Shown: positions 22,968 through 64,000 of the stretch, piece after piece
How the letters are laid out: the number at the start of each line of letters is the position of its first letter
Numbering within the stretch: the first letter of the stretch is position 1
Source of the DNA: Tubulanus polymorphus
Taxonomy: Eukaryota > Animalia > Nemertea
NCBI RefSeq assembly: GCF_964204645.1
Contig: NC_134033.1
Location: 7,262,655-7,326,654 of the forward strand
DNA: 64,000 nucleotides
Reading direction: 5' to 3'
Notes under the pieces: generated by a model
Told to the model about the DNA's origin: nothing
The model's database searches: none
Seen by the model: only the letters and a program-made list of their open reading frames with translations
Program-made: the position numbers and the translations under genes

Positions 22968-23019
22968 CAATTCTACATTATAATTATTGAATTGAGTTAA
23001 ATGATTTAAATATCTAATA

Positions 23020-26521: not shown

Positions 26522-26826
26522 TCTTCTTTTTTAACAAAAATTAAAGAAAAGTAATATCCTAAAATAACAATGATCAGTAACCATATGAAAATTACATGAA
26601 TCAACTTAAACACTAACGTACACTAAAATAGGTTGGGATACTCAAAAATAGTAAAACCAGCCTGTTAACTGAACTAGTTACAAGTACAAACTGTCTGATA
26701 TAGAAAATAAGCATAATAACACTTTACGACAATTACTTATCAGTAATAGGAAGATGTGGGTTTCATACCAGAGGACGAGAGGACGAGACACCACTCATCA
26801 CCACAAGTAATTTTTTTTCCTTATAA

Positions 26827-29800: not shown

Positions 29801-31893
29801 TAGATGATATTTATTTAAGTGATTACCAGAAGAAAATAAAACCGAAAGATCATGTTTTTACAGAAAAATTAATACTTACTCAAAATAATAAATACAATTA
29901 TATTGTTCATTATAGAATGTTAAAATTTTATCTAAAACAAGATATGAAATTAAAGAAAGTACATAGATATATTGAATTTAATCAATCGAAGTGGTTAGAG
30001 AAATATATAGATTTCAATACTCAACAGAGAACAATATCAAAAACAGATTTTGAAAAAGATTTCTTCAAATTAATGAATAATAGTTTTTATGGTAAAACAT
30101 GCAAAAATATTAGAAATAGAAATGATATTGAATTAGTAAATAATTCTGAAAGATTAACACATTTACAATCAAGTCCTAGACATTTAGGAAATAAAAGATT
30201 TGAAGATTATTTAACAGCAGTTAAATTAAAAAGAACGTCAATGAAATTTAATAAACCTATATTCATTGGTTCAACTATTTTAGAAGTATCAAAATTATTA
30301 ATGTATGATTTCTATTATAATGTTTTACAACCACTTTTTGGGGAAAAGCATATTGAAATATTATATTTTGATTCTGTAACAGCTGACACCCCAATATTAT
30401 TAAAATGTAATGATAAAATATTGATAAGAAGAATTTCAGAAATAATTCCAAAACAAAATGAATGTTATATTTCATATGGTGAAAAAGAATTAATACAAAT
30501 AAATGGATTAATGGATGTTTGGACAAGAAATAGATGGAAAAAATTAAAGAATATTATTAGACATAAAACAAATAAGAAAATCTATAGAGTTAGAACTAAA
30601 TTAGGGTTTGTAGATGTTACAGAAGATCATAGTTTAATTAAACGAAATGGCGATGAAATAAAACCAACTGATATAAAAATTGGAGATGAATTATTACATA
30701 AAAGATTTTTCCAAAGAATGAATCATATGTCATTTGATGAAATAATTGATAATATTTATAATATAGAACCCGAAACATTAGAAGAAAAAGAATATTTTAT
30801 CAAAGGATTTTTTATGGGTGATGGTTCAGCAGGTGTGTATAATTATGTTTGGGGTAATAAATATTGTTGGTATTTATGCAATCAAGACTTAAAATTATTA
30901 GAAAGAATTAAGAAATTCTGTGAAGAAGTTTATTCACATAAAACATTCAGAATCATGGATGTTATGAAATCATCAGCAGTTTATAGAATACTTGTAAATA
31001 ATCCTAAAGATTTTGCTATAAAATATAATGATGAATTCTATATTCATGCAATAGCGGAAAGTAATACTTCAACAAAAGAAAAGATAGTTCCAGATTATGT
31101 ATTAAATGCAAAAAATAATTTAAGAAAATGGTTCTTCATTGGGTTCTATGCTGCAGATGGTTCAAAAAGTTTCAAAAAATGCAAAACGATATCTTTAGCT
31201 CAAAAAGGAAAAGTTGCTATATCAGGATTGAATATATTATGCAATTCATTAGGTTTTAATATGAATATTGGATTGATTAAATCTAAACCAAATTGCTTTA
31301 ATTTAAGCCATGTAGAAAATGAGTTAACAGAATAAGTTAAAGATTTATTTGAAATATATAACCCAACAGATTATGTTTATGATTTATCAACTGAAGATGG
31401 TACATTTAACTGTGGATTTCCATTAATAGCGGTCAATACTGATGCGTACATACTAAAAATCAAGACAAATGACATAACAAAAGACTTAAAAACATTAAAA
31501 CATCATTTTGATTTTAGCAATTATCCTAAAGATCATGAACTATTTAGCAATGATAATAAAAAGATTCCTGGTAAATTTAAAGGTGAATTAGGGGGTGATG
31601 AAATGATTGAATTTGTTGGGATAAGAAGTAAAATGTATAGTTACAGAACAAAAGATCATGAAGCTAAAAAGTTAAAAGGAATAACAAAACACGCGGTTGA
31701 TAAACATATAGAATTTCAAGATTATATAAAGTATTTATATAACTCAATTGTAATGAAACATAAAATGAATTGTTTAAGATCAGAAAATCACGAGATGTAC
31801 ATTAATGAAGTTGAAAAAACTAGTTTGAATCCATTTGATGATAAAAGGCATATTTTAGATGATGGTATAAAAACATTACCTTATGGCCATTAA
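26827..31893 (+). pseudogene. polB: Protein-primed family B DNA polymerase (group-2 type) with N-terminal Zn fingers/terminal-protein region, OTU-like protease motif, EndoVII/HNH insert and intein
   Basis: Motifs across the frameshifts include GSG, NEDNKCFLWA...HY, ExoI YGDFES, VRDHDH..YRGAAH..CN, ExoII FHNLSGYD and ExoIII YLKSDV. They continue with IRGG, motif A YIDANNLYG, motif B KLMNNSFYGK, motif C YFD/TD, KMYS and KLKG. There are about 5 frameshifts and 2 in-frame stops. Confidence 0.95.
30373..31437 (+). mobile_element. Intein with LAGLIDADG homing endonuclease (355 codons, one in-frame TAA at 31333)
   Basis: Block A is SVTADTP after YFD and block B is VTEDH. The LAGLIDADG motifs are KGFFMGDGS and IGFYAADGS. 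Block F is YVYDLSTEDGTF and block G is IAVN followed by extein TDAY. Confidence 0.95.
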
Positions 31894-33726
31894 AACAGAA
31901 AATCAATATCATCATACTCTATCATCATACTCTATATACTATTGGCTTCATTATTTTCATTTAATTGTTCTTGTATAATTTGTTTAGGTTCTTCCATTTC
32001 AATTTTTCCTTGTTAATTCGTCAGATGGAATTATAATATCGATGTTTAAATAATTTACAATCTTATTTAAAAAGAATTCCTAACTAATTGAATCTGTTAT
32101 TCTATTTTCCAAATGATACATTAATAGTTGTTTGAATGTTTTTTATATTTTCCATATCTTCTTCTGTTAATTTAGGTTTTTCATAATAATCGTTAAATAA
32201 TAAATATAAATACATTTTCTTTTGTTTTGTGTTAAATGTTGATGGAATAAATGTTTTTATAATATCTTTTTTAGTTATTTCACCATTTTTATTTTCTATC
32301 ATTTTCATTTTTTCAAGCCATTGCATATATTCTGGTGTATGATCTTCTATAGAAAATATTTTAAAAATTTCATCTAGATAATTTAATTATGGTTCTATGA
32401 GAAAATCTCTAGTTTTTTCTTCACCCCATAAATTCTTTTGCCATCCACATTCATTACAAAATAACACAGTACCTTCTTGTCTTAAGGTCGCATAACTACA
32501 TTGTGGGCATTTTTGTTTATAATTTATTGGTAATAGGTCTTCATTAAGCTCCTGGTATTTTCTTACGTTTTCTTTATGTTTTATTGTTCTATTATGTAGA
32601 TTTGAATTACTTGTTGTAATAATCAATTTACAATATTTACAATAATATGTTTTTCTTGTTAATTCATTATATCGTTTTTCTAATTTTTCAACTGTTTCTT
32701 TATTATCTGGTAACGTTTTCTCATATTTTATTTTTTCTAAACTATTTTTTCTTTCATTGAATTCTGCTTCAAATGTATTAGAAATTTTATCTATATGTAT
32801 TTTACGAAATTGATGATTCTCCCAATCTTCTATATTTTCAGGGCTATATTTTATTCGACAAGGCTCACAGAAATGATCTTTTATATTATCCTTATCATAG
32901 AATAAGAAAGGTCTTTTCCAAATAATTTCAGGTTCAACTTCAACAGAATTACTATTACTTTCATAACTATCAACATTAGCTGTTGCGCCATTAATTTTAC
33001 ACTTCTCTGAATGTTTTTTAACATAATTTCTTGAGAATAATTTATTACATTTTGGGCAATTTATTTTAGGGGGTTTATAATTTTCATCATGTTTTTTCAT
33101 ATGTGTATTCTTTTAATTCTACCATTTTTTATAACATAAAAAAATTACCGCTCATCACTAAAAATTAATTTTAATAAAATTTTTCCTTAATAAATGGATG
33201 AGAAGATACCATGCGAAATTTGTGGTGAACTTCTAAGAAAAAGTAATATGGCTCGACATATGAAAAAACATGATGAAAATTATAAACCCCCTAAAATAAA
33301 TTGCCCAAAATGTAATAAATTATTCTCAAGAAATTATGTTAAAAAACATTCAGAGAAGTGTAAAATTAATGGCGCAACAGCTAATGTTGATAGTTATGAA
33401 AGTAATAGTAATTCTGTTGAAGGCTCACAGAAATGATCTTTTATATTATCCTTATCATAGAATAAGAAAGGTCTTTTCCAAATAATTTCAGGTTCAACTT
33501 CAACAGAATTACTATTACTTTCATAACTATCAACATTAGCTGTTGCGCCATTAATTTTACACTTCTCTGAATGTTTTTTAACATAATTTCTTGAGAATAA
33601 TTTATTACATTTTGGGCAATTTATTTTAGGGGGTTTATAATTTTCATCATGTTTTTTCATATGTCTAGCCATATTACTTTTTCTTAGAAGTTCACCACAA
33701 ATTTCGCATGGTATCTTCTCATCCAT
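31891..33726 (-). pseudogene. Multi-zinc-finger protein (C2H2/U1-like fingers plus a C-terminal Zn ribbon), disrupted by stops and an inverted triplication
   Basis: Motifs are CEIC..H..H, CPKC, CEPC, CKYC and CPQC..CNEC. ORFs 33726-33394, 33100-32387 and 32326-32102 are pieces of one gene; the last two are in frame across a TAA. Confidence 0.7.
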
Positions 33727-33794
33727 TTATTAAGGAAAAATCTTATTTAAATTAATTTTTAGTGATGAGCGGTAATTTTTTTATGTTATAAATA

Positions 33795-34552
33795 ATGGTA
33801 GAATTAAAAGAATACAGAATATTTGTTGATTCTAGAAAACTTACAAATTATAAATCACATAATTTAATAGTTCAATTAGATAGAGAATTTAAGAATTGTG
33901 TTGATTTAAAATTAGTAAATATAAGTTTATGTAACTCATTTTACAATATATCGGATAAAAGTCTAGAACATTTAATTTTTTCAATCTTTTACAAAAAAGG
34001 AATAAATGGTTTTTTATATATTTAAAACCAGGATTATATAATTTAGATACATTAGCACAAGAAATTAATAGAAAAGCTCGAGCTAAATTAGGCAGTGATT
34101 CCGGATTTAGTATTAGAATTCTAAAAAGTGATAGTTCTAATAAAATAAAGATTAGGTTAGCTAATGACGAACAATTTAAATTTACAGTAAGAAAACCTTT
34201 AGGTAAACTGTCAGGAATTAACCCAGATATTGTTACAGCATACGCAGAAGGTAGATCAAACTTAATACCTTTTACACACTTGTATATTTATTGCAATTTA
34301 ATTGATCCTACAAAAACATTCGAAGCAACTAAAGATACAATTTGTAATTCTAGTATATTAAATATTTTACCATTAAAGAATGTTAAACAATTTGGAACGC
34401 AAATAAATTATACTTTAACTGAATGTGATTTTAAACCTTGTATTCCTCAATTTAATAATTTTAAATTAGAAATAAGAAATCATAATGGTTATTTAATTGA
34501 TTTGAATAACTTTCCTGTGATATATGAATTAGTTATAAGATGTAGAGAGTAA
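33795..34552 (+). pseudogene. Minor capsid (penton-like, single jelly-roll) protein, one frameshift ~34020
   Basis: The pattern IFVDSR...NSFYNI...PGLY...LYIYCNLI...IL..LP...LEIRNHNGYLIDL is typical of Polinton/virophage minor capsid proteins. Length is ~250 aa. Confidence 0.75.
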
Positions 34553-34568
34553 TTTTTTCACTATATAA

Positions 34569-34925
34569 ATGAATATAACTGTTGGACCGATTATATGTTT
34601 TGGGTTTGATTTTAAATGTGAGAAAGAAATGAAATTTAACATTAATGATGTAATTACACATATTAGAAATATTGCATTTTCTAATGAAACAACAGTTGAG
34701 TATGAAACAACAATAGATAAAGAAACTTTTAATGTAGAAAAGATAACTAATTTAATTAGAGAATCTTTAATATTTTATGAATTAGATGAAGATTTTATCA
34801 TCGATGATATTAAAAAAATAATAATTGAAATATATACAAATGAAACTAGTAATGAAATAAATGTTGAATTAATCGTAAATAAGTTAACTAAATATTTTGA
34901 TGATAGTAATATTTTTGATAAATAA
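34569..34925 (+). CDS. Hypothetical Polinton protein, 118 aa
   Basis: Intact ORF with an ATAAATG start, in a compact gene array. Confidence 0.7.
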   Translation: MNITVGPIICFGFDFKCEKEMKFNINDVITHIRNIAFSNETTVEYETTIDKETFNVEKITNLIRESLIFYELDEDFIIDDIKKIIIEIYTNETSNEINVELIVNKLTKYFDDSNIFDK

Positions 34926-35147
34926 ATGAGTGATAATAAGTGGATAATAACTGGATTATATAATGGAGCATTACTATCAGTTGGAACTGTTGGTTATTCA
35001 ATGGTATTAAAAAAAGTATTTAAAATGGGAAGTGTTACTGTTGATAGATTTGATATAAATGATATCTTAAAACTAACGTTAGCAATTACTTTATCTAATT
35101 TAACTATTGATTATTTAGAAAAACAAAAATATATTCCTCCCATATAA
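34926..35147 (+). CDS. Small hydrophobic protein, 73 aa
   Basis: Intact ORF with an ATAAATG start and two hydrophobic segments. Confidence 0.7.
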   Translation: MSDNKWIITGLYNGALLSVGTVGYSMVLKKVFKMGSVTVDRFDINDILKLTLAITLSNLTIDYLEKQKYIPPI

Positions 35148-35171
35148 ATACATAATTATTTTGCTAAATAA

Positions 35172-35591
35172 ATGGCTTCTGCAGTTATAACTATTATGGG
35201 ATCGGCAATTGTTAACGCTTTAGCATTTACTGGTGGCGGTTATTTATTTAAGCATATTGATAAAAATAGTTCATTAGGAGAACAAAGAAGACATAACTTA
35301 GCATTAGAGAAATACAATAAAGCAGCAGAAGAATATAGAGAAAAGAGGCAAAACTATATGGATTATATTAACAAGGAATTATATGATCAGAAGATTTCAC
35401 ATAGAGATTTTCAATCAGTCGATGATGCAATATATAACGCGGTAACCAATAAAGAAAAATTACAACTATAAAAACCTAAATTATCAGATTATTATACCCC
35501 AAGTAAAGAACAACAGAAATATGAAATAATTTGGATTTTAGGTTGAACAGTTATTGTTATATTTGTTGCTTATAAGTTTACTAATCAGTAA
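35172..35591 (+). pseudogene. Small protein with N-terminal amphipathic/hydrophobic helix, coiled coil and C-terminal TM
   Basis: MASAVITIMGSAIVNALAFTGGGYLF... A frameshift at ~35470 continues as KPKLSDYYTPS...IIWILG*TVIVIFVAYKF. Confidence 0.7.
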
Positions 35592-35607
35592 TTTTTTTTC
35601 TAAATAA

Positions 35608-36042
35608 ATGGAAGATAAAGTTGATAATATTGATATTATTCCTCATGATATAAATAAAACTAAATTAAAAATATATTTAGAAAAACAAATATTAAAATTT
35701 GAAAGTGACTTAAAAGTTAAAAAGAAAAAATATTTAAAAAGTAGAATTATATATTATCTTATTATCAGTGGTTCGGTTAGAATTAGTTCTGTAATAACAT
35801 TTCTAGCAAAATTCAGCCCATTAACACCTTTAGCTATATCAATTGGTGTGTTAGGATTAAGTTCAAGTGTTTTAACTGGTATAAGTTCAAAATTAAATAT
35901 AAAAAGTAATAAAGAAAAAATTAAAACTAATATAAAAGAAATTAATAAATTAAAGAATACACTAGATTATATAATAAGTTTAAATGGCCATATAACAGTT
36001 GAAGAACAAGATAAATTATTAAAAGAATTAATAAATTATTAA
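35608..36042 (+). CDS. Two-TM coiled-coil protein, 144 aa
   Basis: Intact ORF with an ATAAATG start. A hydrophobic hairpin is flanked by Lys-rich coils. Confidence 0.7.
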   Translation: MEDKVDNIDIIPHDINKTKLKIYLEKQILKFESDLKVKKKKYLKSRIIYYLIISGSVRISSVITFLAKFSPLTPLAISIGVLGLSSSVLTGISSKLNIKSNKEKIKTNIKEINKLKNTLDYIISLNGHITVEEQDKLLKELINY

Positions 36043-36058
36043 TTTTTTAATTATATAA

Positions 36059-37447
36059 ATGGCAGATAGTTTTCCAAAAGCTTTCCAATATAATAAATCA
36101 ATTAAATATAATATTCCAGCAATAGATTTTGATAAAGATATTACATATAGAAATGAAGTTTTAGATTCATTAACTAATTTAGAAATTTATGTTACTGAAA
36201 CTAATAATTTTAATGCAAAGATGGAAAATATATTTCATGTATATTTAATTAATTTTAAAAAATTGAAAGATGAAAAACAATGGTTATTAAAATCTAATAT
36301 GAAGTATTGGCAGAACCAATTAAATTTTGCTGTTTATTGTGCAACAACAGGATGTGGAATTAGTTGGAATGATCATTTGAATAATTCTAAATATAAATTA
36401 ATTCAAAGTTTATTTTGATTTCATACATACTTTCAAATCAGAATAATATTAAATGAATTAGAGTGCGCTTTACCAGGATCTAGATATTTTAAAGAATTAG
36501 ATAATAATATTAATTTATCAAAGTTTTATAAAATTTGTAATGAATTTAATATAGATATAAATAATTCTGATTTTAGAACAAAAATTGGAACAATAAGATC
36601 ACTTCCTTACCCTAAAAAGATTGCAGAATATTGTGCACTTCCCATACCATCTAATAGTTATTATAATATCTATAATAATAAATTAGGTTATGGTAAAATA
36701 GAAACTAAGGATTTAGAAACATTAAATTTCAATAAATTACCGAAATTTTATGATCATTTAAAACAAGAAAACAATAATGGTTGGGTTTATTTTATTTTAG
36801 AAAATAGTGAAGGTTTTACTAAATCAGGTATAGAAAGAATAAATCAATTTATTAGAACTTATTTGATATGTATTTTAGGTGCACAAGTTGAAACAAGATC
36901 CCCAATAATTGGAAATTTAAATACATCATTTGATACACAGAAACAATTCAAAGTATTATTTGAAGATTCTGTTCGTAATGATAAAAATAGATCGATTCCA
37001 GAAAACATTGTAAGATATCAAAATTATTTAGATAAATCACATATTAGATTAAACTATTGTATAGGCCCTAATCTATTTATTATTTCTAATGATTTAGTAT
37101 TAAAGATGGGAAATATGATTGGTTATAATAATCTAATTAAAACTGCAACAAAAAATAATTCATTTGGATTGAATGATATAAATAAAAAGATTATTACTGC
37201 ACCAAAATTAATGGAAGGTGAAAAAAATAAAAAACACATTCAATCAACAGAAACTAAAACTAAAAATATTAAATTGGATAATGATTCCAAAATAAAAGAT
37301 TATAATACATCAGAAAATATTAAAACTGATAATATTCAACATGATATAATTAAAACTGATAATGATAATAAATCCCATGAAAATACTAAATTAGCTTTAA
37401 CTTGTATAGGAATTGTTATAGGAGGAATATTATATTTTAAATTTTAA
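36059..37447 (+). pseudogene. Unknown ~460-aa protein with C-terminal TM anchor (one in-frame TGA at 36416)
   Basis: The frame continues across the stop into ORF 36863-37447. It includes WQNQLNFAVYCATTGCG and ends LALTCIGIVIGGILYFKF. Confidence 0.7.
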
Positions 37448-37463
37448 TTTTTTTATTATATAA

Positions 37464-38944
37464 ATGGATGTAGAAGGTGGAGAAGATATTGGAATGGATA
37501 CTTTTTATGAACCTGGTATAAGTGATGAACAACCACCCGATTTTAGTGAAACAAGTTTTAGTAATGATAATAAAATAGAATATAATACTAATTTACCAGA
37601 AGTTCTTCCTGGTTCTAAAAACCCGTCAACAGATGAATTCATTAGAGGAGCTAAATCGAGAATAGATATTCAAAATGAAGTACCAGAATTAGAAAAAAAA
37701 ATTAAATTTTAATGAAATTATTCGTGATTTTAAACCAATATTAAAAAGATCTGGTTTCAATATAACGAATAAAGGTATGGATTATTTAGTAGAAGATTTA
37801 AAATATTTAAATGGCGATTATTATTGGCATTTGAAAGATGACTATTATTTTAAGATTTCAAATCTTAAAAGTAACGATAAAATAATAACACAATCAACTT
37901 TTAATTTATTAAAAGCAGATAGAATTAAGAAAATCGTTAATGATCTTATAACTGATGTTACAGAAAAAGAGATAATTGATAATAGAAGAGAATTTAAACA
38001 TAGAAATGCTAAATTTTTGAAGATAATTAATGAAAATTTAAGACAAAAAAAAATTCATAAAGAAGCTATTAATTCCAAAACTAGTAAACTTAAATCAACC
38101 GAAGTTCAAACTGAAAAACTTTTACCGAATGGATTAATTGATGCAACAGATCAAGAATTAGAAGATTTAAATAATATATTTTCTGATGAAGCAATTAGAG
38201 AAATTAAAAGTATAACCCTTGCATCTGATAAAATTGCGCATGATAAAAGTATGAGATTTTAAAATTAGAACTTTAGAAAACGAATTAACTGATAAAAATA
38301 AAGAAATAGAACAATTAAAGTCTGATTTAGATCATCAAGTAATTGATGAAATAGAATATAGGAAAAAAGAATTACGTTTAGAAAAAGAAAAAGATGATTT
38401 AGAATATAACGTAGAATTACAAAAAGAAGAAATTAAATTATTGTTAAAATCATATGATTATAATATTAATAGATTAACAGTTATTTTCAAAGATTTGTTG
38501 ATAAAACCAAATTCTGAAATATCATTAAAAGATAGAATAAAGTTATTATTTAAATTAGAAGGAATAACAATTCTTTCAATTCTAACAGCTGTAACTATGT
38601 TATTTACAACAATAGGTTTAGCAATATCAAATGCTTTGAAATCTACGCCTACTCCCAATAAACCAGATAAACCCCCAGATAATAATTCTATACAAGATAA
38701 AGTTAAAGATGGTTTAAAGAAATTAGCAAAATATTTATGGGAACTATCTAAAAAATCTGCTGCAGCATTACCAGGAATTATTGCATCAATTGTTGGTTTT
38801 ATATTGAAATCTGCAGGTAATATTCTTAACTTTGCTGCGGAACATATTATTTTATTTTTAATTACAGTTGTAAGTGCTATTATTTTTGGGTTAGTGTATA
38901 TGATATCAAAAAGATATCAAGAAAAAATAATAAAAAATAAATAA
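37464..38944 (+). pseudogene. Long coiled-coil protein with C-terminal TM helices (fragmented)
   Basis: Collinear ORFs 37464-37712, 37777-38262 and 38441-38944. Hydrophobic segments are GITILSILTAVTMLFTTIGLAI and ALPGIIASIVGFIL...IILFLITVVSAIIFGLVY. Confidence 0.7.
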
Positions 38945-38964
38945 TTAATTTTTTCGTTAAATAA

Positions 38965-40243
38965 ACGAGTGGGAGTTATATAAGTCCTTCTAAGATTTCT
39001 AGAATATCTAATGCCATTAAAGCGGAAAGATCACGTCATATAATTACACATAATCCTTCAAATATTAATCCCGATGAAACTTTATATGTTAGAATTCCTA
39101 GATTAACACAAAATACTTTTTATGTTCCAAATAGTATTTATTTATCGGCTGATATAAAAGTAATTGGTCATGATAATAATTATGTTGTTGATAATGTTGG
39201 GAGATATTTGATTAAAAAATTAACTATAAAGATTGGTCCAGAAACAGTTTTCTCATTAGATGATTATAATTTATTTATGCATTATAAAGATTTATGGTTA
39301 ACTAAAGAAAATAGAAATAATATGATATTTCAGGGTATTCAATCGGAAAACCATAATAAATTAAGATCTGCGGCCAATAATGCAGTAGTAACTAATGCTG
39401 TAGATAATTTGATAAAAAAGATTTATGGAAGCAAATATAAAATTCCATTAGACTTTGAATTGATAAATAATAATGCACCTTTATATAAATATATATTATA
39501 TAAATATGTAATTCAAGAAGATATTATATTTGAGATAACATTTGCTCCTGTAAATGAAATTGTATTATCTAGCATTGTTAAAGATATGGGATATAAATTA
39601 TCGAATATATGCTTAGAATATGATACAGTAACTAATGAAAATATTGCATTAAGTATTATATTATAACACAATTCAAACTCAATACAATCAAGGATTTTCA
39701 TTATTATATGATTATATTGATAAATTTAAAACTGTAACTATTAATGCAAATGATGAAATAATTAATGAGAATATTAACTTCCCAAGAAGATCTATTAAAG
39801 GTATATTAATATTTTTTACCATTGCAACATATTCTAATGGCGCAATAAAGGTAGATAATTATTATAATCCTGAAATAACAAAAGTAGAAATAAATATCGA
39901 AGGAATAGCAAATAAAATATTTTGTCAAGGAATGAGAATGATTGATCAATGGCCAAAAATTAGAAAACATTTTATGAATGAAAAAGTAAAATCATTTGAA
40001 AATTGTAATATTAATCAAATTGATTATTATACCGGCAATAAATATGCATTATGGTTAGATTTTAGAACAACAGAGGATAATTCATTACATGGTTCTGGGA
40101 AAAAACTACAGAACACAAAAGATGGAATACAATTATTCATGGCAAAGAAAAAAGGAATCAAAAATTTTAAAATGCACATTTATATTATATCTGACGCACA
40201 ATTAAATATTGTAAATTCACAATTAGATAGTATTCAATATTAG
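38965..40243 (+). pseudogene. Probable major capsid protein (double jelly-roll); start codon mutated to ACG, frameshift ~39660
   Basis: The frame is open from ATAA-ACG at 38965 (HNPSNINPDETLYVRIP...), ~420 codons and beta-rich, ending ALWLDFRTTEDNSLHGSG...HIYIISDAQLNI. Size and position fit an MCP. The fold is inferred. Confidence 0.7.
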
Positions 40244-40273
40244 AAATATAAAGTTAAAATTAAGGATATATAA

Positions 40274-41393
40274 ATGGGTGGTAAAAAAACTCCTAATACT
40301 AAAGAACAATATTTAAGAAATTTATATTACAACCCTGAGAGTTCGGTTGCTTATTCTTCTACCAAAAATATACGGCGTCAAGTAAAACAAGATAAATTAG
40401 ATAAGATAATCCCACAAAATTTAGTTAAATATAAAGATATAAATGAATTTATGTTAGAACAACCAAGATACACAACACATAAAAAAATTGTTAGAAAATA
40501 TAAAACACGTAAAACTATGGTAAGTTATGTAGATCAACGGTGGCAAGGAGATTTAATTGATATGAAAAATGTTAAGAAAGATAATGATGATTATTGGTGG
40601 TTATTGAATATAATTGATATTTTTAGTCGTTATGTATGGAGTTTCCCACTTTATAGAAAAGATGCTGTACAAACATCAAATGTTTTAAGAAAATTTCTTT
40701 CGGATGATAAACTAAAACCAGAAAAAATACAATTTGATGATGGAAAAGAATTTGATAATTCACTTGTTCATGAACTCTTAGACAATCATAATATTAAATA
40801 TTTTTCAACAAAATCGGATAAAAAAGCAGCAGTTGTTGAACGATTTAATAGAACATTAAGAACAAGAATGTGGAAATATTTTACAGCAAATAATACTTTT
40901 AAATGGATTGATGTTTTACCAAAATTGATAGAAGGATATAATAATTCTTATCATTCTTCTATTGGAATGAAACCTATTGATGCTAGAAAACCTAAAAATT
41001 CTGAAATTGTTTGGAATAATTTATATGGAGCATTTCTTGTAGATGATTTTGGTGAACCTAAATTTAAAGTTGGTCAAAATGTTAGAATTTTGTTAGATAT
41101 GTTAGATATTTGACAAGGGATACGATCGAAATTTTACTAGGGAAATATATAAAAATAAAAAAGGTAATAAAAACAAAACCATATGTCTAGATTTAGATGG
41201 TGAAGAAGTTGATGGCTACTTCTACGAAGAAGAATTAAGTTTAACTACTGAAAATCTAGAACAAGAATATAAAATTGAAAAAGTATTAAAAACAAAAACT
41301 ATTAAAAGAAAAAAATATTCTTTAGTAAAATGGGTTGGATGGCCAGATAAATTCAATGAATGGATATTATCAAGTAAAATTAAAAATATATAA
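40274..41393 (+). pseudogene. int: Retroviral-like (rve) DDE integrase with C-terminal chromodomain
   Basis: The DDE triad is WQGDLID, QFDDGKEF and VVERFNRTL. After frameshifts the sequence reads FDKGYDRNFTREIY and YKIEKVLK...LVKWVGWPDKFNEWI (chromo-like). Confidence 0.93.
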
Positions 41394-42002
41394 ATGAATA
41401 AGGAATTATCTATATTTGAGCCTCATAATATGTTAATTTCTGGTGTAACAAATTGTGGAAAAACTTATTTTATATTAAATTTATTAGAAACTGTTTATAA
41501 AAAATATTTTGATAAGATAGTATTATTTTGTCCAACATATGAATTTAATCAAACTTATGATAGAAATATTACTAGAAATAATAAATTTATTATATTAGAT
41601 CCTAAAACAGTAAAAGAAAATTTAGATAATTGCATTAAAATAGCAATTGATATTTATAAAGGATCAAATACATTATTCATTATAGATGATTGTGCTAATC
41701 TACATGATTCAAAAGTTAGAGAGAGTGAGTTATGCTATTTAGCTTTTTCTGGCAGACATTTTGGGATAACAACTTGGCTTTTAAATCAAAAATATAATTC
41801 AATTGTTAAAGACTTTAGAGAAAACATTCGATTTCTAGTTTTATTCTACAATAAAGATAGAAAATCGATGAAAAATGCACTTGAGGAAAATGATATTATT
41901 CCACATGATTTACATAATGAATATATGGATAAATTGAAAAATATCAAAAGATCAAAATTACTATTTAGATTACAACACCCATTTAAATATGAATTTATTT
42001 AA
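41394..42002 (+). CDS. A32-like/FtsK-HerA DNA packaging ATPase, 202 aa
   Basis: Walker A is GVTNCGKT and Walker B is LFIIDD. The Arg-finger motif GRH and the conserved Q are present. The ORF is intact. Confidence 0.92.
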   Translation: MNKELSIFEPHNMLISGVTNCGKTYFILNLLETVYKKYFDKIVLFCPTYEFNQTYDRNITRNNKFIILDPKTVKENLDNCIKIAIDIYKGSNTLFIIDDCANLHDSKVRESELCYLAFSGRHFGITTWLLNQKYNSIVKDFRENIRFLVLFYNKDRKSMKNALEENDIIPHDLHNEYMDKLKNIKRSKLLFRLQHPFKYEFI

Positions 42003-42003
42003 A

Positions 42004-42177
42004 TTCAACTAGCTTGTTAATCTAGTTTAATTCTAGTTACATTCTAGTTGAATTCTAGTTGTTAGTAGTTGGAACAAAATCAACTAGATTTAACAAGAAA
42101 TAAACAAAAACAACAATATTTCAACTAGCTTGTTAATCTAGTTGAATTCTAGTTACATTCTAGTTGAATTCTAGTTG
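42004..42177. repeat. Intergenic CTAGTT-rich direct repeat (2 x ~58 bp) with an inverted partial copy between
   Basis: TTCAACTAGCTTGTTAATCTAGTT...CTAGTTG occurs at ~42004 and ~42120. CAACTAGATTTAACAAG lies at ~42081. Confidence 0.75.
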
Positions 42178-42661
42178 CAACATCACAAATAATTTTTTTG
42201 TTATATAAATGGTAGGTGAAAAGAAAATAAAATCTAAAAATGGTGATGTTCCAATTGAAAAAACTTTAGATGATTTAGGAATAACAGAAAACAAATTAAT
42301 TCCAGATGATGGTGCTTTAAATAATGTTACAACAAATAATAGTTATGAATATTATCTTTATTGTTAACATCAATTAGAAATATTAATAGCATCTGGAAAA
42401 TGTAAAAATTTTATCGGTAAAAATTTAACTTATAATGAAATTGGTGAATGAATGAATGAATATATTTTTCTCAAATGTATAATACATAATATAATAGTAT
42501 AATAATTGTTGTACATGATTATTGAATATATACATTCAAGCAGGACAGCCCCAAGCCCTAAGGGCTGTACCTAATTGGGGGGATGCCCTGGTATGATTTG
42601 ATACCATGATACAATTAATGAGAATACAATAATAATTAATGACAACATAATTGACATCAAA

Positions 42662-42900
<239 letters not shown>

Positions 42901-42965
42901 TATATAAATATTTTCGAAAACAAATGAAGGTAGGCAACACAAAAAAGGTTTCATTTTAGAATTAA

Positions 42966-45900
42966 TTAATAGTTCAAGAGTGTAGTTTTTTTTAATCGTG
43001 AGATAAAAGAATTTATGGTAGCAGCTTTGCGAAGATGATCATCAGTGTTCTGCCAAAGAATTGGAGTTCTACTTAAAAAAGAATCGTGAAAGAGTTTCGT
43101 GGTATGAAATTGGACTCTGGCATTATTCCTGTTTCTAGTGTTATAATTGTGGAATTTTGAATTTAAATCTAGTAAATTGTAGATAGACAAAGGGAGCTTT
43201 TTATGAGAATGATTAAATCCAAATTTAAGAATTTCTAATTTGACAAGATCGGCAAATTTTAAAATTTTGTATTTTTTGAAAATAGGGGATGTTGGTGCAT
43301 TGAAGGCAGCATTATCTATGAGTCGTACAGTTTTTTTCTGGATTTTGAAAATACTATTAGTTTGCTCAGAGGAAAGCAGTGGACCCCAGACAACCAGTGC
43401 ATAAATAAGATGACAGTGAATATATGAATTGTAAATAGTTTTTTTCAAAAAACCTGGGAACATATTCTTAACAGTCCTTAGCAGGTACACATTTTTATTC
43501 ATTTTATTGATAAGCTGTTTAATATGCAAATTCCAATTGAGATCAGCATCAATATTTAATCCTAGAAATTTACAGTCAGTAGATAATTCTATATTTAAAT
43601 TTTCTAATTCTATTTTTAAGTTGTCTGATCTCAATAGATGCCTTTTTGGTTTGAATAGAAAGTATTTAGTTTTTTCAATGTTCAGGGTAAGTTGATTGGC
43701 ATGGAACCAGGAGGTTAATAATTTTAAATCATTTTTAGCATTTTGAAACAGTTCAGAAATATTCTTTTCAGTACATAGAAGGTTTGTATCATCGGCAAAT
43801 TAGATGGCTTTAGAATGTTTGAGATTATTATTTAGATCGTTAATGTAAACAAGAAAGAGAAGCGGACCTAAGACTGAGCCTTGTGGTACTCCATGCGTAA
43901 GCATGTTGAAAGTCGAGTCAGCATTATTGTAGTGAACATAAATTTTTCTATCTTTGAGATAACTATGAAACCAGTTGAATACGTGTCCCCTAATTCCATA
44001 GTGATATAATTTATAGAGTAGTTTGTCAATATTTAACGAGTCAAATGCCTTAGATAGGTCAAGACATATACCCAAAGAAAAATTTCTTTTTTCTAAATTA
44101 GCGATAATGTTACCAATAAAATCAGCTATGGCATGAGTTGTAGAATGATTTGGTCTGAAGCCATATTGCGTAGTATTTAGAATTTCAAATTTAAACAAGA
44201 AATGATATAGTCGCTTATGAACAAGTTTTTCCAAGATCTTGGATAAGACTGGTAGTAGGGAAATTGGACGGTAATTGTTTAGAGTCTGTTTGCTTCCAGT
44301 TTTATGAAGAGGAATAACCTTTGCTATTTTCATTTTATCTGGGAATTTGCCTTCTTGAAGAGATTTATTACAAAGAATAGTCATAGGATTAATAATTGAG
44401 GGAGCAATAAATTTCAATAGTTTATTGCTTAAAATATCTGGACCCGTACTTTGTTTAGGCGAAAGCTGGTTGATCATTTTAAATATTTCCTCACTATTTG
44501 TAGGTTGCAGGAACATAACATTGTCATTTTTATTGGGAAGAAATGCCATAAAATTAGTAGTAGTGTTAGGTATTTTTTCTGAATACTTTCTGCCAACCGA
44601 AGAAAAGAAATCATTAAATGCAAGACTAATTTCGGAATTATCAGTAACCGTTTTTCCATCAATCTTAAAATTTGTCGTAATTGATGTTTTATCATTAGTC
44701 TTGCCAATTAGTTCTTTAATGAATTGCCACATTTTACGACAGTTTTTTCCAGAGGAATTAATTTTGTAATTATAAAAATCTATTTTTTGACGTCTTTTAA
44801 CATAGCTGAGCCGATTATGATAATTTATATAGTTTTTATAACGTTGGTCTGATTTATCTAACCCAATAACTTTTTTGTATAGATTATCACATTTCTTTGA
44901 GGATCTCAGAATAGAGTTAGTCATCCACGGCTCAATTAATTTGTTTTTCTTTTTTTAATTTCTGGAGCTATACTATTAATAGTATTAGTAATATTTGTCA
45001 TAATAAAGTCATACGATTCACTACAATTCATATTATCCAAATTTGACCAGTTAACATTTAAAAGGGTGTTATTTATTGATTGTATATTTTTAGCATTAAG
45101 GTTACGGGAGAAGAATTCATTTGTTGTTGGTCTAACATTATATACAATAGAAACGAAACAAGGCAAGTGATCCGAAATATCAGTTAGTAGTATTGCACTA
45201 GTGTGATTACTATTTAGTTCGGGAGAGAGGTATATGTTATCAATTAGAGTAGCAGTGGACTTTGTGATTCTTGTAGGTCGCAGTATTGTAGGGCATAGAC
45301 TATTGTTTAGGTTGATTTCTAAGAATTTTGATGTATTTTTATGACTATTGATCTTAATGTAGTCTAAATTCTGATCCATACCAAGAACTATCTCTGATTT
45401 TTCGTTATTAATTTTTGTAATTAAAGTTCTGTATTTTTCAAGAAACATTAGATCGCTATTGCCAGGTACTCTATATAATTCACCAATAATAATTTTCTTT
45501 TTAGATTGAGTTTTAGGATAAATTTCTATGAAACAAAATTCAAATTTACCTTCTTCAAAAATGTCCAAATCAGTTCTCGGGTTGTACGATATATTATCAT
45601 TAACGTAGATGGCGACTCCTCCTTGAGATAAATTCAGTCTATGATTTTCAATTAAATGATAGTTAGATAATTTACAAAGAGGTGCATTTTTATCTGTTAG
45701 AAAGGTTTCACATATCATTATGACATCTATAATAATACTTTGATTTTTAAAGATTTCTATCATAATTTTGAGTTTATCAATTTTTGAATAGAGACTACGT
45801 ACATTCAGTTGTAAGATATTAAGGTTGTTGGTAGTATTGAAATTATATACATCTTTCAGGTCACTGGGTTTAGTATATGGACATTGATTACTATCTAAAA

Positions 45901-45994
45901 TCAGATCATCATCAATGATTGAATTTAAATAATAATTTTTATCATTAGCTTTTTGTTTGAATAATTTAAAAAAATCTGTGTTGCCAAGACACAT
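42966..45994 (-). pseudogene. LINE ORF2: AP endonuclease + reverse transcriptase
   Basis: APE motifs are QLNVRSL, ICETF, GGVAIY, TLIDNIY and SDH. RT motifs are YRPISLL, DLSKAFD, GVPQGSVLGP and FADD. There is one frameshift (~44930) and one TAA (43800). Confidence 0.95.
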
Positions 45995-46793
45995 AATAAT
46001 TTAGAACAAATACGTAAAACCAAAAAGAAGAAAATTTGATAAGGAAAAAAAAGAAAAAAAAAAGAGTTTGTAATAAACAAAAAAAAAAATGCACAAAAAG
46101 ATGCTGACCTTTGACCGCCGTATACGGCAATAGTCAGCTAGTACTTGGTAGGTAGTTGATTAAATCAACTATGAGGCCAAGGCATATGTGTCAAGGTTAC
46201 AAATGAATCTTATATTTTAGTCAAACAGATTTAGAGATAAGCACTGTAGTTTGTGTTTATAATATTGACTACGTACTTTGAAATAATATGATCATCAATA
46301 GGAAAAATAAATCAAAATAAAATAAAGTAAATACTCTGTTGAAACCACGCTATCAACTGAGTTAAAAATAGTTGACAATTTACATACTTAGCTTCTTTAC
46401 TTTAAACTATCGAGTAATAGTGTCACCGAGTAACTTAAGAATATGCCAAGTCTTAGAAAAGGCAGACATACAAAAGTAAGAAACAGTATACAATATACAG
46501 TTCACCAGTATAGATGTGTCCTAGGTCATACCGGTAATACTAAATAAGTGTGTTTGAGCTTTTAGGTAATTTAGTTATAAATATTCATACTTTTTGGCTA
46601 TCATGACACTTGAGGGAAAACCAATTCAGCTTTAACGGTGTCACTCTTGAAATAGATGCTTACTTATTGAATGATTAAGTTATGTACAGATATTATGTTA
46701 GGTCATTAATCGAAAAAGATTATCCGCAAGAATTAATTACACCGGTATATGAATCATTTAAAAAGTCACCTTTTGGATCATATCTCTAGTCCT

Positions 46794-47678
46794 TTATGGA
46801 AGATTCTCAAATAACTTCAGTCTAATTATCTGTCCATTTTTAATTGCAAGCACCTTGCCATGAGATACAAACACAGTCTCGTATTTACCACTTTTGGAAG
46901 CATCATCCCTAAGTTTGGATACTTCAGGCGCTAAGTCCTCCTGTATAACAAATCCGGTTCCTTTAAGTTTTTTCCTGTTTTGTAGAACACGATCTCTAAT
47001 TCCACGAAATTTAAAACGCACAATTATGCCCGGTGGCTTTGGCTTAACAGAATTATTCGGTTGGTGACGCTGTATCAATCTATGTGCAACTTCAATATCA
47101 TCCTGTGATACTTTTTCGCCCTGTGGTAGTTGCAGCTTTTTAATCACTTTGTCAATTACAATTTTGGAACAATTTTCATTGTCTTTTACCGCTGGTAAAG
47201 AGGGACCATATATTCGTAAATTGTTTCTACGCGAGTATTGGTTATTCTCTACTACTCCGATTTTGAGTTTTTTTATATCCAATTTAAGAGAATTATTTTC
47301 AGTTGTTAGTTCAGTTACTTTTATTTCGTAGTCTTTGATTGTTTTTTCCATCATGCCAATTCGGTCAGTTAGAGATTTAATTTCAGTCTGAACAATTGTC
47401 GTTATTTCTGCAGTCAAAGTTTTTTTGAACTGATCCATATATGTTTCCATGTAGGTTATCGTAAGTGTTTCAGCTGATTCACTTGAATTAGATGAAGCCG
47501 GCCTAGGACGTTTATTACAGCGATTGTTTGTACTGGTATTAGAGTCTTCCATGAGATTATCTGCATCGCTGAACACTTCATCTGCCGTTGGTTCTTTATT
47601 CTGGCCTTGTTCTATAGACGGATCTTTTGTGAAGGCTGTTATAGTAGTCTGAGTCTGAGACGCCATGTCATCTGTCAA
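46794..47678 (-). CDS. LINE ORF1 (coiled coil + RRM-like RNA-binding domain), 294 aa
   Basis: A coiled coil is followed by NQYSRRNNLRIYG, IEVAHRL, IIVRF and IQEDL. The ORF is intact. Confidence 0.9.
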   Translation of the reverse strand: MTDDMASQTQTTITAFTKDPSIEQGQNKEPTADEVFSDADNLMEDSNTSTNNRCNKRPRPASSNSSESAETLTITYMETYMDQFKKTLTAEITTIVQTEIKSLTDRIGMMEKTIKDYEIKVTELTTENNSLKLDIKKLKIGVVENNQYSRRNNLRIYGPSLPAVKDNENCSKIVIDKVIKKLQLPQGEKVSQDDIEVAHRLIQRHQPNNSVKPKPPGIIVRFKFRGIRDRVLQNRKKLKGTGFVIQEDLAPEVSKLRDDASKSGKYETVFVSHGKVLAIKNGQIIRLKLFENLP

Positions 47679-48309
47679 TCAGCTGTCACTCAGTCACAAC
47701 ACAAATAGATATATGTTTAATCCTTTATAGACCAACGACGAAAATAAGTGAGTGAGTAGAGTAGTCCATGACACCTGTCACTGTTGATATTTTTCGCATT
47801 GATATTCACAAAATATTCACAAATTCACTCAAACGGCACATATCCGATCAGAAAAATTTCAAGACATCTCTAGATCCGACCGAGATAATTTAGCTTTTCG
47901 CAATGATACAAAAATCTCTAAATTATTTCCGACACATACCCCCGAAAAAGGCAGTTTTCAGGAGCTAAGTGCGCACACGACTGACCAGGTCGGCCATATT
48001 TTGTTGATACAATGAAATCAGATGAAATTATTAGATTATTTAAGATTCATGAAACCGCGAGAACAGCTAGAATTAATGACGCGATATCAGAAAATGTAGT
48101 AAAAGGTTACAGTAAATTATGTAATTATATGCTGCTAATTCAAGATGAAAATAGATTATATGCTGATTTAAAAAATGATTATTTAGTTATGACCGAATTA
48201 AATAAATGGATTGGATATTTATCATTTCAATTAGGTGGATTTATGACATTATTATCAACTGGAGTTATAACATTTTCAAATATTGAAAGTAAAAATATTT
48301 CTATAATAA

Positions 48310-48663
48310 ATGAACAAGGTGGAAGAAGTGAAGAAAAAACCGAGATCACAGAAACAAATTGAATGGTCTCGGCAATTAGGAATTAAATCACAAGAATATA
48401 AAAAAGCTGTAAAAGAAAAAATAAGTAATAAAAATGTTAATAAAAATGGTGAAAATATTGTTATTTCTACTCCTTCTAATGATAGAATATTTGATAAATG
48501 TCTATATTTTACAGTTGGATTTGTAATTGTATTCATTTTGATTGGGTGTAATTGGTATAAGAAATCAAATAAAATTCATGATATTAATAATTCTGAAACA
48601 ACTGCTATCAAAAATGAAAATACTTCTGAAATTCCAAAATTGATAATAAAAAAAATGGATTAA
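48310..48663 (+). CDS. Single-TM Polinton protein, 117 aa
   Basis: ATAAATG start, a basic N-terminus and the TM segment LYFTVGFVIVFILIGCNW. Confidence 0.7.
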   Translation: MNKVEEVKKKPRSQKQIEWSRQLGIKSQEYKKAVKEKISNKNVNKNGENIVISTPSNDRIFDKCLYFTVGFVIVFILIGCNWYKKSNKIHDINNSETTAIKNENTSEIPKLIIKKMD

Positions 48664-49602
48664 TATTTAGAAAAAAAGCAAAAAAAAATAATTGAATATC
48701 TCACTACTTTTGTCTATCTATGCGGAGCAATTAAATTGTCCAGATAAGTCATTTCGGATTCTAGATATTCATCATTTTTATTAATTTATTTTGTTTTTAC
48801 TTGAATATTGTATTACAGTCGTTTCTTATTATTAGTTTTTTCTTAAATTGAAAGATGGCAGCACTGGGTGTGATGCTAAAATGAATATTTGAATTTGAAT
48901 TTGTTAATCAATTAACATGGTAATTGATTACTAATTTGATTAAAAATTATATCATAATTAAGTTAAAAATTTATAATTCATTTATCAGTTTTCATTCTTA
49001 TATTCTTTTCATTCGGAATAATTTATAATTTCAAATTTCACATATTTTTTTAGCACCAGCAACATTTACTTAGGTGTTTTAGCTAAGTATATTCACTTCA
49101 TTCGACCCCTGGAGTGCCGCCGGGCTTGGCTTGCATTGCAGGGGCATTTCGAAAATGCACCTTTGTCCACCCTCCGTGGTTCTCCTTCAGTTTCGACTTT
49201 GAAGGAGAATTGGTGAGGTGTGGGTCACAGGGGTGTAATTAGAAATGCTTGGGGATAGGTATCTCGTGGCGCCTCTCAATAACGGGATGCTTATCCCCTA
49301 AAAACTCTTTGAGTCAAGTCGGGTGGTTTTGCTAAAACTTACCGTAAAAACATTGAAATATTCCTTTTAATCACGAGAGAGAGAATGTATCCTGTCCTGT
49401 GTGTGTTGTATGTACTGCGTGCTTATTATATAACTGCTATAACAACAACGTTGAATTGCAACACCTGTTTGACCAATCAATATTCAAATGAAGCACTCTC
49501 TTATAATAACATGTAACAGATGTTTGGCTGTATGATTGTAGTTGTTTGTAAAACGACTAAGGTCATTTTGGATTCTAGATATTAATTATTTTTATTTTTT
49601 AT

Positions 49603-49928
49603 TTAATCAACAATTTCTAAATCATGATGACCGTCTTCATTTTTCCCATGGTAGATTATTTTAAATCCTTCTAAATCTTTTAATTCCTCTGTACTCAATG
49701 AAACCCATTTATCGGGTAAAAATACTTTAAATTCTCGCGATGTACTAACATTACAGTAGCTTAAATTAGCTGATACTTTCTCTCCATATTTAGTTTTTAT
49801 CTTTTCTATTTTCAATATTTTATGTTCAATTTCTTTTGTAACATCAACTAACTTTTTTATTTCAAATTGTTTTTTGCTGGTTTTATTCTGTTATTTATTG
49901 TTGCTAAGAATGCTTTTCTATCTCCCAT
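49603..49928 (-). pseudogene. Small beta-rich protein starting in the right TIR (possible OB-fold/SSB), one frameshift
   Basis: ATAAATG at 49928 gives MGDRKAF..., which shifts into ...KTKYGEKVSANL...FKVFLPDKW. The function is inferred only. Confidence 0.5.
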
Positions 49929-50005
49929 TTATTAGGAAAAAAAATTACTTGTGGTGATGAGTGGTGTCTCGTCCTCCGGTATGAAACCCACATCTTCCTA
50001 TTACT

Positions 50006-62130: not shown

Positions 62131-63475
62131 TTAACCTGTGGATATCACCGTACAGTCACGTACGCGTAACAACTTCGTACTTAAAAAATGGTATTGGCTA
62201 CTATATAATAGGCCTAGAAACAAATAAATACCGGTAGGCTTTCTTAGCTTCCACACTTCACAACCGAACCAACTGACCAACCCACAGGGGCTTGTCACAA
62301 TTTGATAATGAATGGATGATACCAGTATCCCTGTATAAAAAAGAAAAGGGAGCTAACTAAATCGACTATCTGTACATTACCTTCTCAATTCAATCGACTG
62401 TCAACGACGCACAACAGTCTTATCCTTCAACTCGATGGTGATTTCAGGATATTTCTAAACATTCGGAGGCGTTACGAGCACAAATTCTCGAGAGAATTGA
62501 AACAATGTCGACCACCGGCTTTCGATCTGTTTACGTTCATCGCAAGTCGAGTCACGTGACAGCAGTCACGATTTGCAGGCCGCTGATAGGTCCAAAATAA
62601 ATATAATTTAAAAAAATAAGTTTAAAAATGCGTGCCAAAAAATAAATCAGCAAATCACTCAACCATAGTAAGGTGCGTAGTTGTTTTTTGAGATCTGTGT
62701 ATAAGTAAATTAAGCGGTGAAATTATTTTTTAATGATCGGATGTTCCCGGAAATTTCCGTGCTAAGTTGCCGACCGCGGGGAATTTGAAATTTGATTTGA
62801 CAGCTGGTAAAGTGAAACCACGCTGAAAGATGACTGGGCTTCTGATATCCATGGCTGTTTCCTGGTTAGTATCGATAATAGTCGGATTGTGTAGGCTTAC
62901 GTACGGAGCATCTTCCAGACTTTATCTTTTCAAACCAAAAATTCCTCAAAGAGGGGCGATTTCTATTTTAGTGATTGTTTTACACAGGTCACAGGTTTTA
63001 TCACTTGGCAGAGGAGGTCCTCGACAAGGATATGTTACAGCTTATGTTGGAGTTCAAAGTAAGTTTTTTATTTCAATAATTCAATAGGCCTGTGCATTTT
63101 TTAAGTAAGCACAATCGATATAACACATGAGTAATAGGGATAATGGGCTTTCAGATCAAAGGTCGAACGGTCGAGCTCGTAAAAAATGAAAAACATAAAA
63201 ATAATAACAATTTATACTTGAATTACTCGCAAAACTCATAAAAATGAAAAATAAATTCTCACACGCTCGAATTTATTTTTCATTTTATGAGTTTCACTCC
63301 TAATTCAAGTATAAATTGTTATTATTTTTATGTTTTTCATTTTTACTCACCCGCCCGTTCAACCTTTAACCCGAAAGCCCATTATCCCTATTACTCTTAA
63401 AATATTCACATAAATGAATAACATTTAAATCATTGAACTTCTAAAATCAATTTTAATAAAAAATTTAGTATTAAA

Positions 63476-63802
63476 ATGGAAGCAAATAAGTACTACTGCC
63501 CAACATGTAATATCAATATAGATAAATCTCAAAAAGCAAGACACAATAAAACTAAAACACATTTAGAGAATAAATTGAAACTAGAATATTTACAGTTATA
63601 TTCAGAACAGTTAACAAAAGGAAAGAAATTTATTGAATTATGGAATAATGATCCAAATAATGAACAATACGTTGAGGAATTTGATATCAAGGAATCGAAA
63701 CAATTTATCAAAAGCAACGAAGAATGAAAAAGGATGACGTTGGTCGAAGAAATGGAAGAGGATTATAAAATATTAACCAATTTAGTAAAAAAATACGTAT
63801 AA
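63476..63802 (+). pseudogene. U1-like C2H2 zinc-finger protein (in-frame TGA at 63725)
   Basis: YYCPTCN...KARHNKTKTH resembles the N-terminal fingers of the Polinton pPolB ORF. The frame continues to a TAA at 63800. Confidence 0.65.
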
Positions 63803-63805: not shown

Positions 63806-64000
63806 ATGGAACCAGAACAACCACAAACTATCAATATTACAAATAACACTGGCGTTATAAACATATATTACAAAAAGTGTTCTAAATGTGAATTAGATAA
63901 ATCATTAACAGAATTTAGTAAGCGCAAGACTAGCAAAGATGGTTTTCAATATTGCTGCAAAACTTGTTTTAAACTATATACCAAACAATACCGAGAAGAT
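63806..64000 (+). CDS. Zn-ribbon protein (partial)
   Basis: ATAAATG start. KKCSKCELDKSLTEFSK...DGFQYCCKTC is a motif often found N-terminal to viral HNH-type nucleases. It is truncated by the window end. Confidence 0.65.
   Translation, partial: MEPEQPQTINITNNTGVINIYYKKCSKCELDKSLTEFSKRKTSKDGFQYCCKTCFKLYTKQYRED

Follow-up and report, generated by a model that had tools for sequence, protein, structure and literature searches.

Replication and integration of Polintons are currently viewed through a model of terminal inverted repeat (TIR) annealing and protein priming. Polinton/Maverick elements end in (AG)3 or (AGT)2 motifs and are accompanied by target-site duplications (TSDs) of 6 bp, according to the accessible part of a survey of vertebrate Mavericks, in which the words "hairpin" and "palindrom" have 0 occurrences (PMC8097293). 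Palindromes within TIRs are described in the available parts of a 2026 preprint on the endogenous virophages of Halocafeteria seosinensis (subtypes 1, 2, 5 and 6) and on PLV subtype 4. They are found preferentially with non-pPolB replicases, and hairpin priming is proposed for them, with accidental annealing as the alternative (10.64898/2026.07.28.741278). In these parts of the preprint, the proposal of hairpin priming at polinton-type ends has so far rested on the presence of a palindrome. The preprint was the one publication on Polinton hairpins or palindromes in a search of the open literature; subscription papers and bioRxiv supplements could hold earlier descriptions. The accessible parts of PMC11296320, 10.64898/2026.10.13.758929 and PMC6061790 contained nothing on Polinton hairpins, the last of them leading on to the work on Streptomyces telomeres.

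The end described here lies in a 64,000-nucleotide stretch of Tubulanus polymorphus DNA (the window), and we file it as a putative Polinton-family end on the basis of TIR and first-ORF homology, with 605 interior bases visible. As in the H. seosinensis elements, for which hairpin priming is likewise a proposal, the palindrome is inside the TIR, adjoins the host junction and is common to copies. The figured H. seosinensis subtype differs in length (52 nt there, 266 nt here) and in kind, being a protist virophage or PLV rather than an AGT-ended Polinton. With Polinton/Maverick elements the locus shares an AGT-type terminus, a TIR start and first ORF in common with the full Polinton of the window, and 6-bp TSDs on its sister elements. 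Unlike their usual TIRs, the TIR of the hairpin element folds on itself back to the terminus.

Terminal palindromes of protist virophages and PLVs were thus already known, and what is new is the covariation of the arms and the bias of mismatches to one strand. The parts of the preprint covered here make no mention of covariation, of a strand bias in mismatches or of tandem G.A, and its supplements may show mismatch patterns. Covariation or strand-biased mismatches in Polinton ends were reported in no paper found in a search that covered mainly the open literature. Here, the copies themselves provide evidence for the fold and for the strand, in the form of changes that complement each other, a deletion matched in both arms and mismatches that all involve guanine.

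Structure of the fold-back end and its neighbours

An imperfect fold-back of 266 bp had been described at 63130-63395 in an initial annotation, and both its coordinates and its description proved right. Aligned over 129 columns, the arms at 63130-63258 (129 nt) and at 63269-63395 (127 nt) show 113 identities, 14 mismatches and 2 one-base gaps. The predicted plus-strand fold has an energy of -92.5 kcal/mol, compared with -18.2 on average for shuffled sequences (z -23.1, with 0 of 200 shuffles equalling it), and the predicted minus-strand fold is better still (-104.2 kcal/mol, z -27.3). The sequence also confirmed that the terminal motif closes both arms, inverted in the inner one, and that the flanks, CACATG on the left and CTTAAA on the right, do not form a TSD. 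Between the arms lies the 10-nt apex TCACACGCTC. The loop of this length stood up as annotated and can be refined, since on the minus strand it resolves into two G.A and one G.T juxtapositions and a 4-nt loop. In the predicted fold, the 3' end of the minus strand is paired to an internal copy, with template beyond, a description that concerns geometry only.

The features are listed by position in the window, with strand where one applies.

22080..25270, related mini-element with TSD TACGTC; both TIRs carry arm 1, loop and a truncated arm 2 (sequence comparison)
26742..50005, plus strand, neighbouring full-length Polinton, decayed, with TSD CTTATC and a short TIR without fold-back (PolB, rve and A32 ATPase matches)
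63124..63129, plus strand, putative left 6-bp TSD CACATG, whose partner would lie outside the window (sequence; sister elements show 6-bp TSDs)
63130..63258, outer arm, beginning with AGTAATAGG at the element terminus (arm alignment; 2210 reads with unrelated flanks end here)
63130..63589, probable full TIR of about 460 bp (drop in depth and switch of reads)
63176..63178, minus strand, bubble 1, partner 63347-63349, tandem G.A adjoining T.G (pairing analysis)
63226..63228, minus strand, bubble 2, partner 63298-63300, tandem G.A adjoining G.G (pairing analysis)
63259..63268, minus strand, apex, in which G.A, A.G and G.T juxtapositions close a 4-nt loop at 63262-63265 (pairing analysis)
63269..63395, inner arm, with inverted terminal motif, then on into the element (arm alignment; read depth)
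63476..63727, plus strand, 83-aa ORF, candidate U1-type zinc finger (PF06220 E=9e-4, under the Pfam cut-off; homologue is the first ORF of the neighbouring Polinton)
63806..64000, plus strand, ORF interrupted by the end of the window, matching the Cys-rich N-terminal part of endonuclease VII/HNH-type proteins (phrog_1035 E=1e-9, phrog_2255 E=2e-7)

The difference between the strands widens with RNA parameters (-166.0 for the minus strand vs -133.7), which would suit a structure that acts in RNA. Transcripts exiting at the right end would carry minus-type sequence and might fold as a G.U/G.A hairpin for 3'-end formation or small RNAs, and most Polinton ORFs in the window run from left to right. 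However, the end of the stem coincides exactly with the DNA terminus, and Rfam returned two generic miRNA-hairpin matches far under the gathering score, at 28.6 bits against 100 and 27.4 bits against 135. We consider a role in RNA very improbable.

All three elements, the hairpin element, the mini-element and the full Polinton, start with AGTAATAGG, an AGT-type terminus one base off the (AGT)2 motif, and 6-bp TSDs are present on both sister elements. In the 3.2-kb mini-element the TSDs are perfect and the TIRs near-identical. Its TIR at 22080 matches arm 1 in 113 of 130 columns and, as annotated initially, retains the loop (with one change) and a shortened second arm; the hairpin ends about 22 nt beyond the loop, with no fold-back to the terminus. 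A tandem array with a 24-bp unit, including 17-bp variants, makes up most of the interior of the mini-element (22915-24900), and the element is nested in another one composed of inverted 7-bp repeats (21420-21553, 22029-22079, 25271-25390).

The PolB match of the neighbouring Polinton (E=7e-6) is just under the cut-off. At 29605-31335 on the plus strand, this PolB is made up of several ORF pieces, with an intein-like insert (PF14890 E=3e-6, below the cut-off), and the insert holds a LAGLIDADG domain (PF14528 E=1e-5, above the cut-off). An inverted duplication in the same Polinton (32860-33816; 319-nt arms, 99% complementary, 75 nt apart) doubles the start of a zinc-finger ORF. Many of the Polinton ORFs between 26806 and 42219 are preceded by a T-tract and a TAAATG motif, which we take to resemble poxvirus late promoters. 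A presumably LINE-like insertion inside the Polinton at 42966-47666 (minus strand), with what we take, from their motifs, to be ORF1-, endonuclease- and reverse-transcriptase-like ORFs, adjoins long AAT and AC microsatellites. Sequence motifs also lead us to assume a Gypsy-like gag-pol remnant at 50724-53867 and a SWIM/zinc-finger transposase-like region at 56378-59689, both on the minus strand; a GATA finger match (E=1e-4) was obtained in these regions.

In the interior of the hairpin element, the 83-aa ORF shares 15 of 34 aa with the first ORF of the neighbouring Polinton (E=5e-9). No catalytic domain was visible within the window part (63806..64000) of the endonuclease VII/HNH-type ORF. Because 11 of the 16 listed coding variants in 63476-64000 fall on third codon positions (p=0.004), the small ORFs of this region appear to be under selection.

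Copies of the terminus in raw reads

Raw reads were taken from one run, of a study different from that of the contig runs; about 12/100 of the run was read, and the reads were mapped twice. Position 63130 is the true terminus of the element, as 2210 reads leave there into unrelated flanks (agreement 0.34). Average depth was 13.8 in the flank, about 356 times this value in the outer arm, 156-173 times at the junction of arm 2 with the interior (about 160 times) and 50 times in the last interior bin, ratios that equal copy numbers only if the flank is single-copy. Depth continued without a break across 63395 (2397 at 63390-63401, 2156 at 63402-63413), and a loose end at this position was not among the best 6 of 189 rows, the smallest of which had 484 reads. 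Depth at 63395 therefore indicates that most arm-2 copies continue into the element, which argues against both a MITE and a single captured junction.

The hairpin is a real, family-wide terminus with many copies, and it makes up the outer end of the terminal repeat in a Polinton subfamily that is present in many copies. The suggestion in the initial annotation of a Polinton subfamily with hairpin-type ends, as opposed to a stand-alone MITE, is supported by the many flanks at 63130 and the depth beyond 63395. Its other suggestion, a replication junction captured once at integration, is not supported, as 2210 reads with unrelated flanks start at 63130.

A stand-alone MITE, a one-off captured junction and an assembly artefact are together extremely unlikely. 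The unit does have terminal motifs at both ends, as a MITE would, and with 6 of 189 loose-end rows shown, solo copies with fewer than 484 reads are conceivable. Against this, the unit has no TSD between its differing flanks, and no break in depth at its inner end. Raw reads of another study also speak against these readings, with many copies (about 160 times the flank depth) and thousands of reads with different left flanks.

The insertion is located about 65 bp downstream of a GTAAGT splice-donor-like site (62989-63129). Contigs of two read runs stop exactly at 63129, which would fit the joint presence of filled and empty alleles.

At 63589 depth drops from 1393-1770 to 824, and 775 reads switch to one other sequence (agreement 0.94). 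This break fits the inner boundary of the TIR, hence a mirrored hairpin at the right end of the element, and is equally compatible with a second subfamily, which would look alike.

Depth at the end of arm 2 was about half of that in the outer arm (2397 vs 4915), and about half of the terminal read depth comes without a recognisable arm 2. The initial annotation had counted copies without a second arm against its reading; such copies were found in part, the mini-element being devoid of the distal second arm. Shorter versions of the hairpin occur with the apex shifted to bubble 2 (joint 63186>63295, 134 reads) or to bubble 1 (joint 63176>63378, 12 reads), and joints 63286>63373-63386 represent a shortened arm 2. 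All shorter-hairpin joints rejoin arm 2 ahead of the inner terminal motif. An unexplained joint, 63278/63286 (61 reads), links opposite strands.

Flip/flop isomers, which the initial annotation had proposed to look for, would produce a strand switch at 63130/63396. Such a joint was not among the 15 listed of 97 joints (the smallest listed with 14 reads), nor among the 15 listed of 130 in the other mapping. A likeness to pox or asfar telomeres is not supported, as no isomer joint is among those listed and the loop is 129 nt inside the host junction.

Variation between the arms and the strand of the mismatches

The variant table was available for 40 of 75 rows, of which 32 fall within the hairpin and were classified; the values are frequencies, not phased molecules. 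Eight of the 32 variants make four complementary pairs, namely 63140/63385 (read frequencies 0.53/0.57), 63145/63380 (0.43/0.42), 63197/63329 (0.35/0.70) and 63214/63312 (0.96/0.77). Seven variants turn a mismatch of the window into a Watson-Crick pair, 3 give G.T on the minus strand, 2 are without a partner, 63201 gives A.C, and 11 give other mismatches when taken alone. The last two groups, 12 rows in all, have no explanation in the variant table itself.

Part of the explanation comes from one subfamily (46 reads), in which the outer arm differs from the window at 5 stem places; by eye, a listed arm-2 variant is complementary to each of them. The arm-2 variants complementary to this subfamily are 63309, 63311 and 63321, all three formerly unexplained, as well as 63318 and 63329. 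In arm 1 of the same subfamily 8 bases are skipped, and they face a deletion of 8 bases at 63332 (142 reads). Most of the variants still unexplained lie close together, at 63187-63201 and 63245-63246; they probably come from subfamilies of which a single arm aligns. Arm-1 reads misplaced on arm 2 were ruled out as the source of the distal pairs (1098 reads at 63385, 758 at 63380), since they would leave loose ends at 63395, where any are under 484 reads.

Variation extends to the apex and the bubbles. A variant at 63261 (1726 of 2862 reads) converts the G.T of the apex to a G-C pair, and another at 63265 falls in the unpaired 4 nt. In bubble 2, the G.G is replaced by a Watson-Crick pair in 537 of 1167 reads and one G.A is lost (63228) in 280 of 1163, and so the bubbles are not invariant. 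Altogether, the paired substitutions, the matched 8-base deletion and the shorter versions show, from unphased frequencies, that the arms of the hairpin co-evolve.

Co-evolution of the arms could also result from a passive fold-back without function, created by template switching at AT-rich internal repeats and forming on single-stranded intermediates, with repair copying arm onto arm except at stable guanine mismatches. The matched 8-base deletion and double transversions arise most easily by copying, each arm is built of duplicated A-tract modules with a spacing of 58 nt, the mini-element and the full Polinton manage without the hairpin, and a mild bias in the same direction exists outside it. 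Nevertheless, we regard a functionless fold-back as unlikely: versions of differing length retain the distal part of arm 2, the pairing partner of the terminus, tandem G.A appears in register at three places, and chromosomes usually lose long palindromes.

The mismatches between the arms are biased to one strand. On the minus strand, which provides the 3' end, G is present in 14 of 14 mismatches (8 G.T, 5 G.A and 1 G.G), and on the plus strand C is present in 14 of 14 (sign test p=1e-4). Transitions alone are 8/8 in the same direction (p=0.008), and when the 7 clusters are counted once, p=0.016. Four of the five G.A form two tandem pairs, the apex "loop" supplies a third, and tandem G.A is thus in exact register at 3 places of the hairpin. 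According to the accessible part of PMC8163305, mismatches with guanine rank as the most stable, those with cytosine as the least, and tandem GA (GA-AG) is especially stable and strongly stacked. Given that G is part of every minus-strand mismatch and that tandem G.A is present three times, it is likely, judging from the modelled pairing, that the minus strand of this Polinton-type end folds into a hairpin.

A mutational share in the strand bias is possible, since sequences outside the hairpin lean the same way. As a control, plus-strand counts over 12 other inverted repeats in the window were 27 C and 17 G (p=0.17); in the interior, 12 of 15 listed transitions, unpolarised and mostly at third codon positions, share the direction of the hairpin bias. 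Deamination-type bias could yield G.T, but not tandem G.A. The trinucleotide GAG occurs 7 times on the minus strand vs 2 times on the plus strand and may be a directional protein-binding motif, a role that may hold together with structure. We favour structure because of the exact dyad register at three places.

Self-priming and comparison with known end structures

Our preferred reading, to which we assign a probability of about 0.5, is that the minus (3'-end) strand forms a hairpin from which the element primes the synthesis of its own DNA. In a single-stranded intermediate, the 3' end of this strand would pair with the inner copy of the terminal motif, the 3'-OH would then face the interior template, and extension would lead to a hairpin-closed duplex. 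DDE integrases normally cut 3' of the terminal motif. A retrovirus-like integrase could nick the base of the stem at the corresponding place, just 3' of the motif, and joining of the nicked end to the host would follow with a 6-bp stagger. Repair by the host would unfold and copy the hairpin, giving the observed layout with one orientation and no flip/flop. The G.T and tandem G.A would hold one strand folded, and the integrated duplex would remain an imperfect palindrome, more stable in this form because it is imperfect.

Self-priming had been raised in the initial annotation; the geometry allows it, and we infer the mechanism itself from the modelled fold. It is favoured by the true terminus, the continuity at 63395, the many copies, the complementary variation, the guanine-only mismatches of the minus strand and the one listed orientation. 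Its main weakness is that two elements, the mini-element and the neighbouring Polinton, have moved with no full fold-back, together with the share of terminal depth, about half, that lacks a recognisable arm 2. In addition, 11 of the 32 hairpin variants are without a listed partner and give a non-G.T mismatch alone, 3 of which are explained by the 46-read subfamily.

Self-priming would be redundant if the hairpin subfamily encodes a terminal-protein pPolB, and Polinton pPolBs include their own terminal-protein domain, as stated in the available part of 10.1101/2024.03.18.585575. The fold-back could then be a local duplex origin for protein priming, which rebuilds a double-stranded end on the displaced strand and replaces the long-range TIR panhandle, with the pPolB re-initiating there. 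Under this alternative, too, the same strand would fold and one orientation would be expected, and the terminal motif is common to the PolB-encoding neighbour. In Streptomyces telomeres as well, protein priming goes together with sheared G.A pairs and a fold-back of the 3' end, in the part of PMC4513846 available to us. However, the palindromes of protist elements accompany non-pPolB replicases in the accessible parts of 10.64898/2026.07.28.741278, and the PolB-encoding neighbour is without a hairpin. A duplex origin of this kind seems rather improbable to us.

The self-priming reading has a bolder version, which we put forward tentatively and hold to be possible but doubtful. A Polinton lineage may have swapped protein priming for parvovirus-like self-priming, its free form would be a hairpin-closed duplex in which G.T and sheared tandem G.A pairs, confined to one strand, hold the ends, and the integrase would double as a telomere-resolving nickase.

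Searches for relatives outside the window were made in viral and metagenome contigs. The loop motif had 0 matches in viral contigs and the TIR-start motif 0 matches in metagenome contigs. Paired terminal motifs 230-260 nt apart gave 30 matches in viral contigs, 0/30 being real hairpins (arm identity 0.47-0.58), and an ATPase query of viral contigs found 0 relatives. An integrase query of metagenome contigs returned 44 loci, none with the TIR of the hairpin element (best matches 14-24 nt). One of the 44, L011, plausibly contains the end of another Polinton. Its subterminal hairpin stops short of the terminus and is formed at L011 256-385 by GAG-rich repeats in both orientations.

Among viral ends, mismatches in the vaccinia telomere are essential (PMC8956199, accessible part). 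The end described here resembles the flip/flop telomeres of poxviruses in being an AT-rich imperfect hairpin in which mismatches may matter. In poxviruses, though, the genome ends in the loop, in two isomers, whereas here the stem meets the host DNA at its base and a single orientation is listed. Bubbles are present in parvoviral ends, some of which occur in one form only, in the part of PMC8242256 covered here. As in parvovirus terminal hairpins, a 3' end is paired to an internal copy and mismatches form bubbles, a likeness in geometry only. Unlike those, the hairpin is integrated with a Polinton-type end, has no ears and has no flip/flop listed, and no HUH Rep/NS1 was seen in the 605 interior bases.

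In the telomeres of Streptomyces linear replicons, a 3' segment is complementary to an internal palindrome, sheared G.A pairs are present and fold-back extension occurs in vitro (PMC4513846, accessible part). The terminal 3' fold-back with G.A pairs is shared, by analogy only, and the Streptomyces telomeres differ in being bacterial, in having several short palindromes and in using Tap/Tpg proteins. By geometry, the hairpin resembles a parvoviral or Streptomyces 3' fold-back and is a member of neither group. If the self-priming reading is true, Polinton ends would be tied to the end structures of parvoviruses and Streptomyces, and it would suggest how a palindrome can work on one strand yet stay tolerable in a chromosome.
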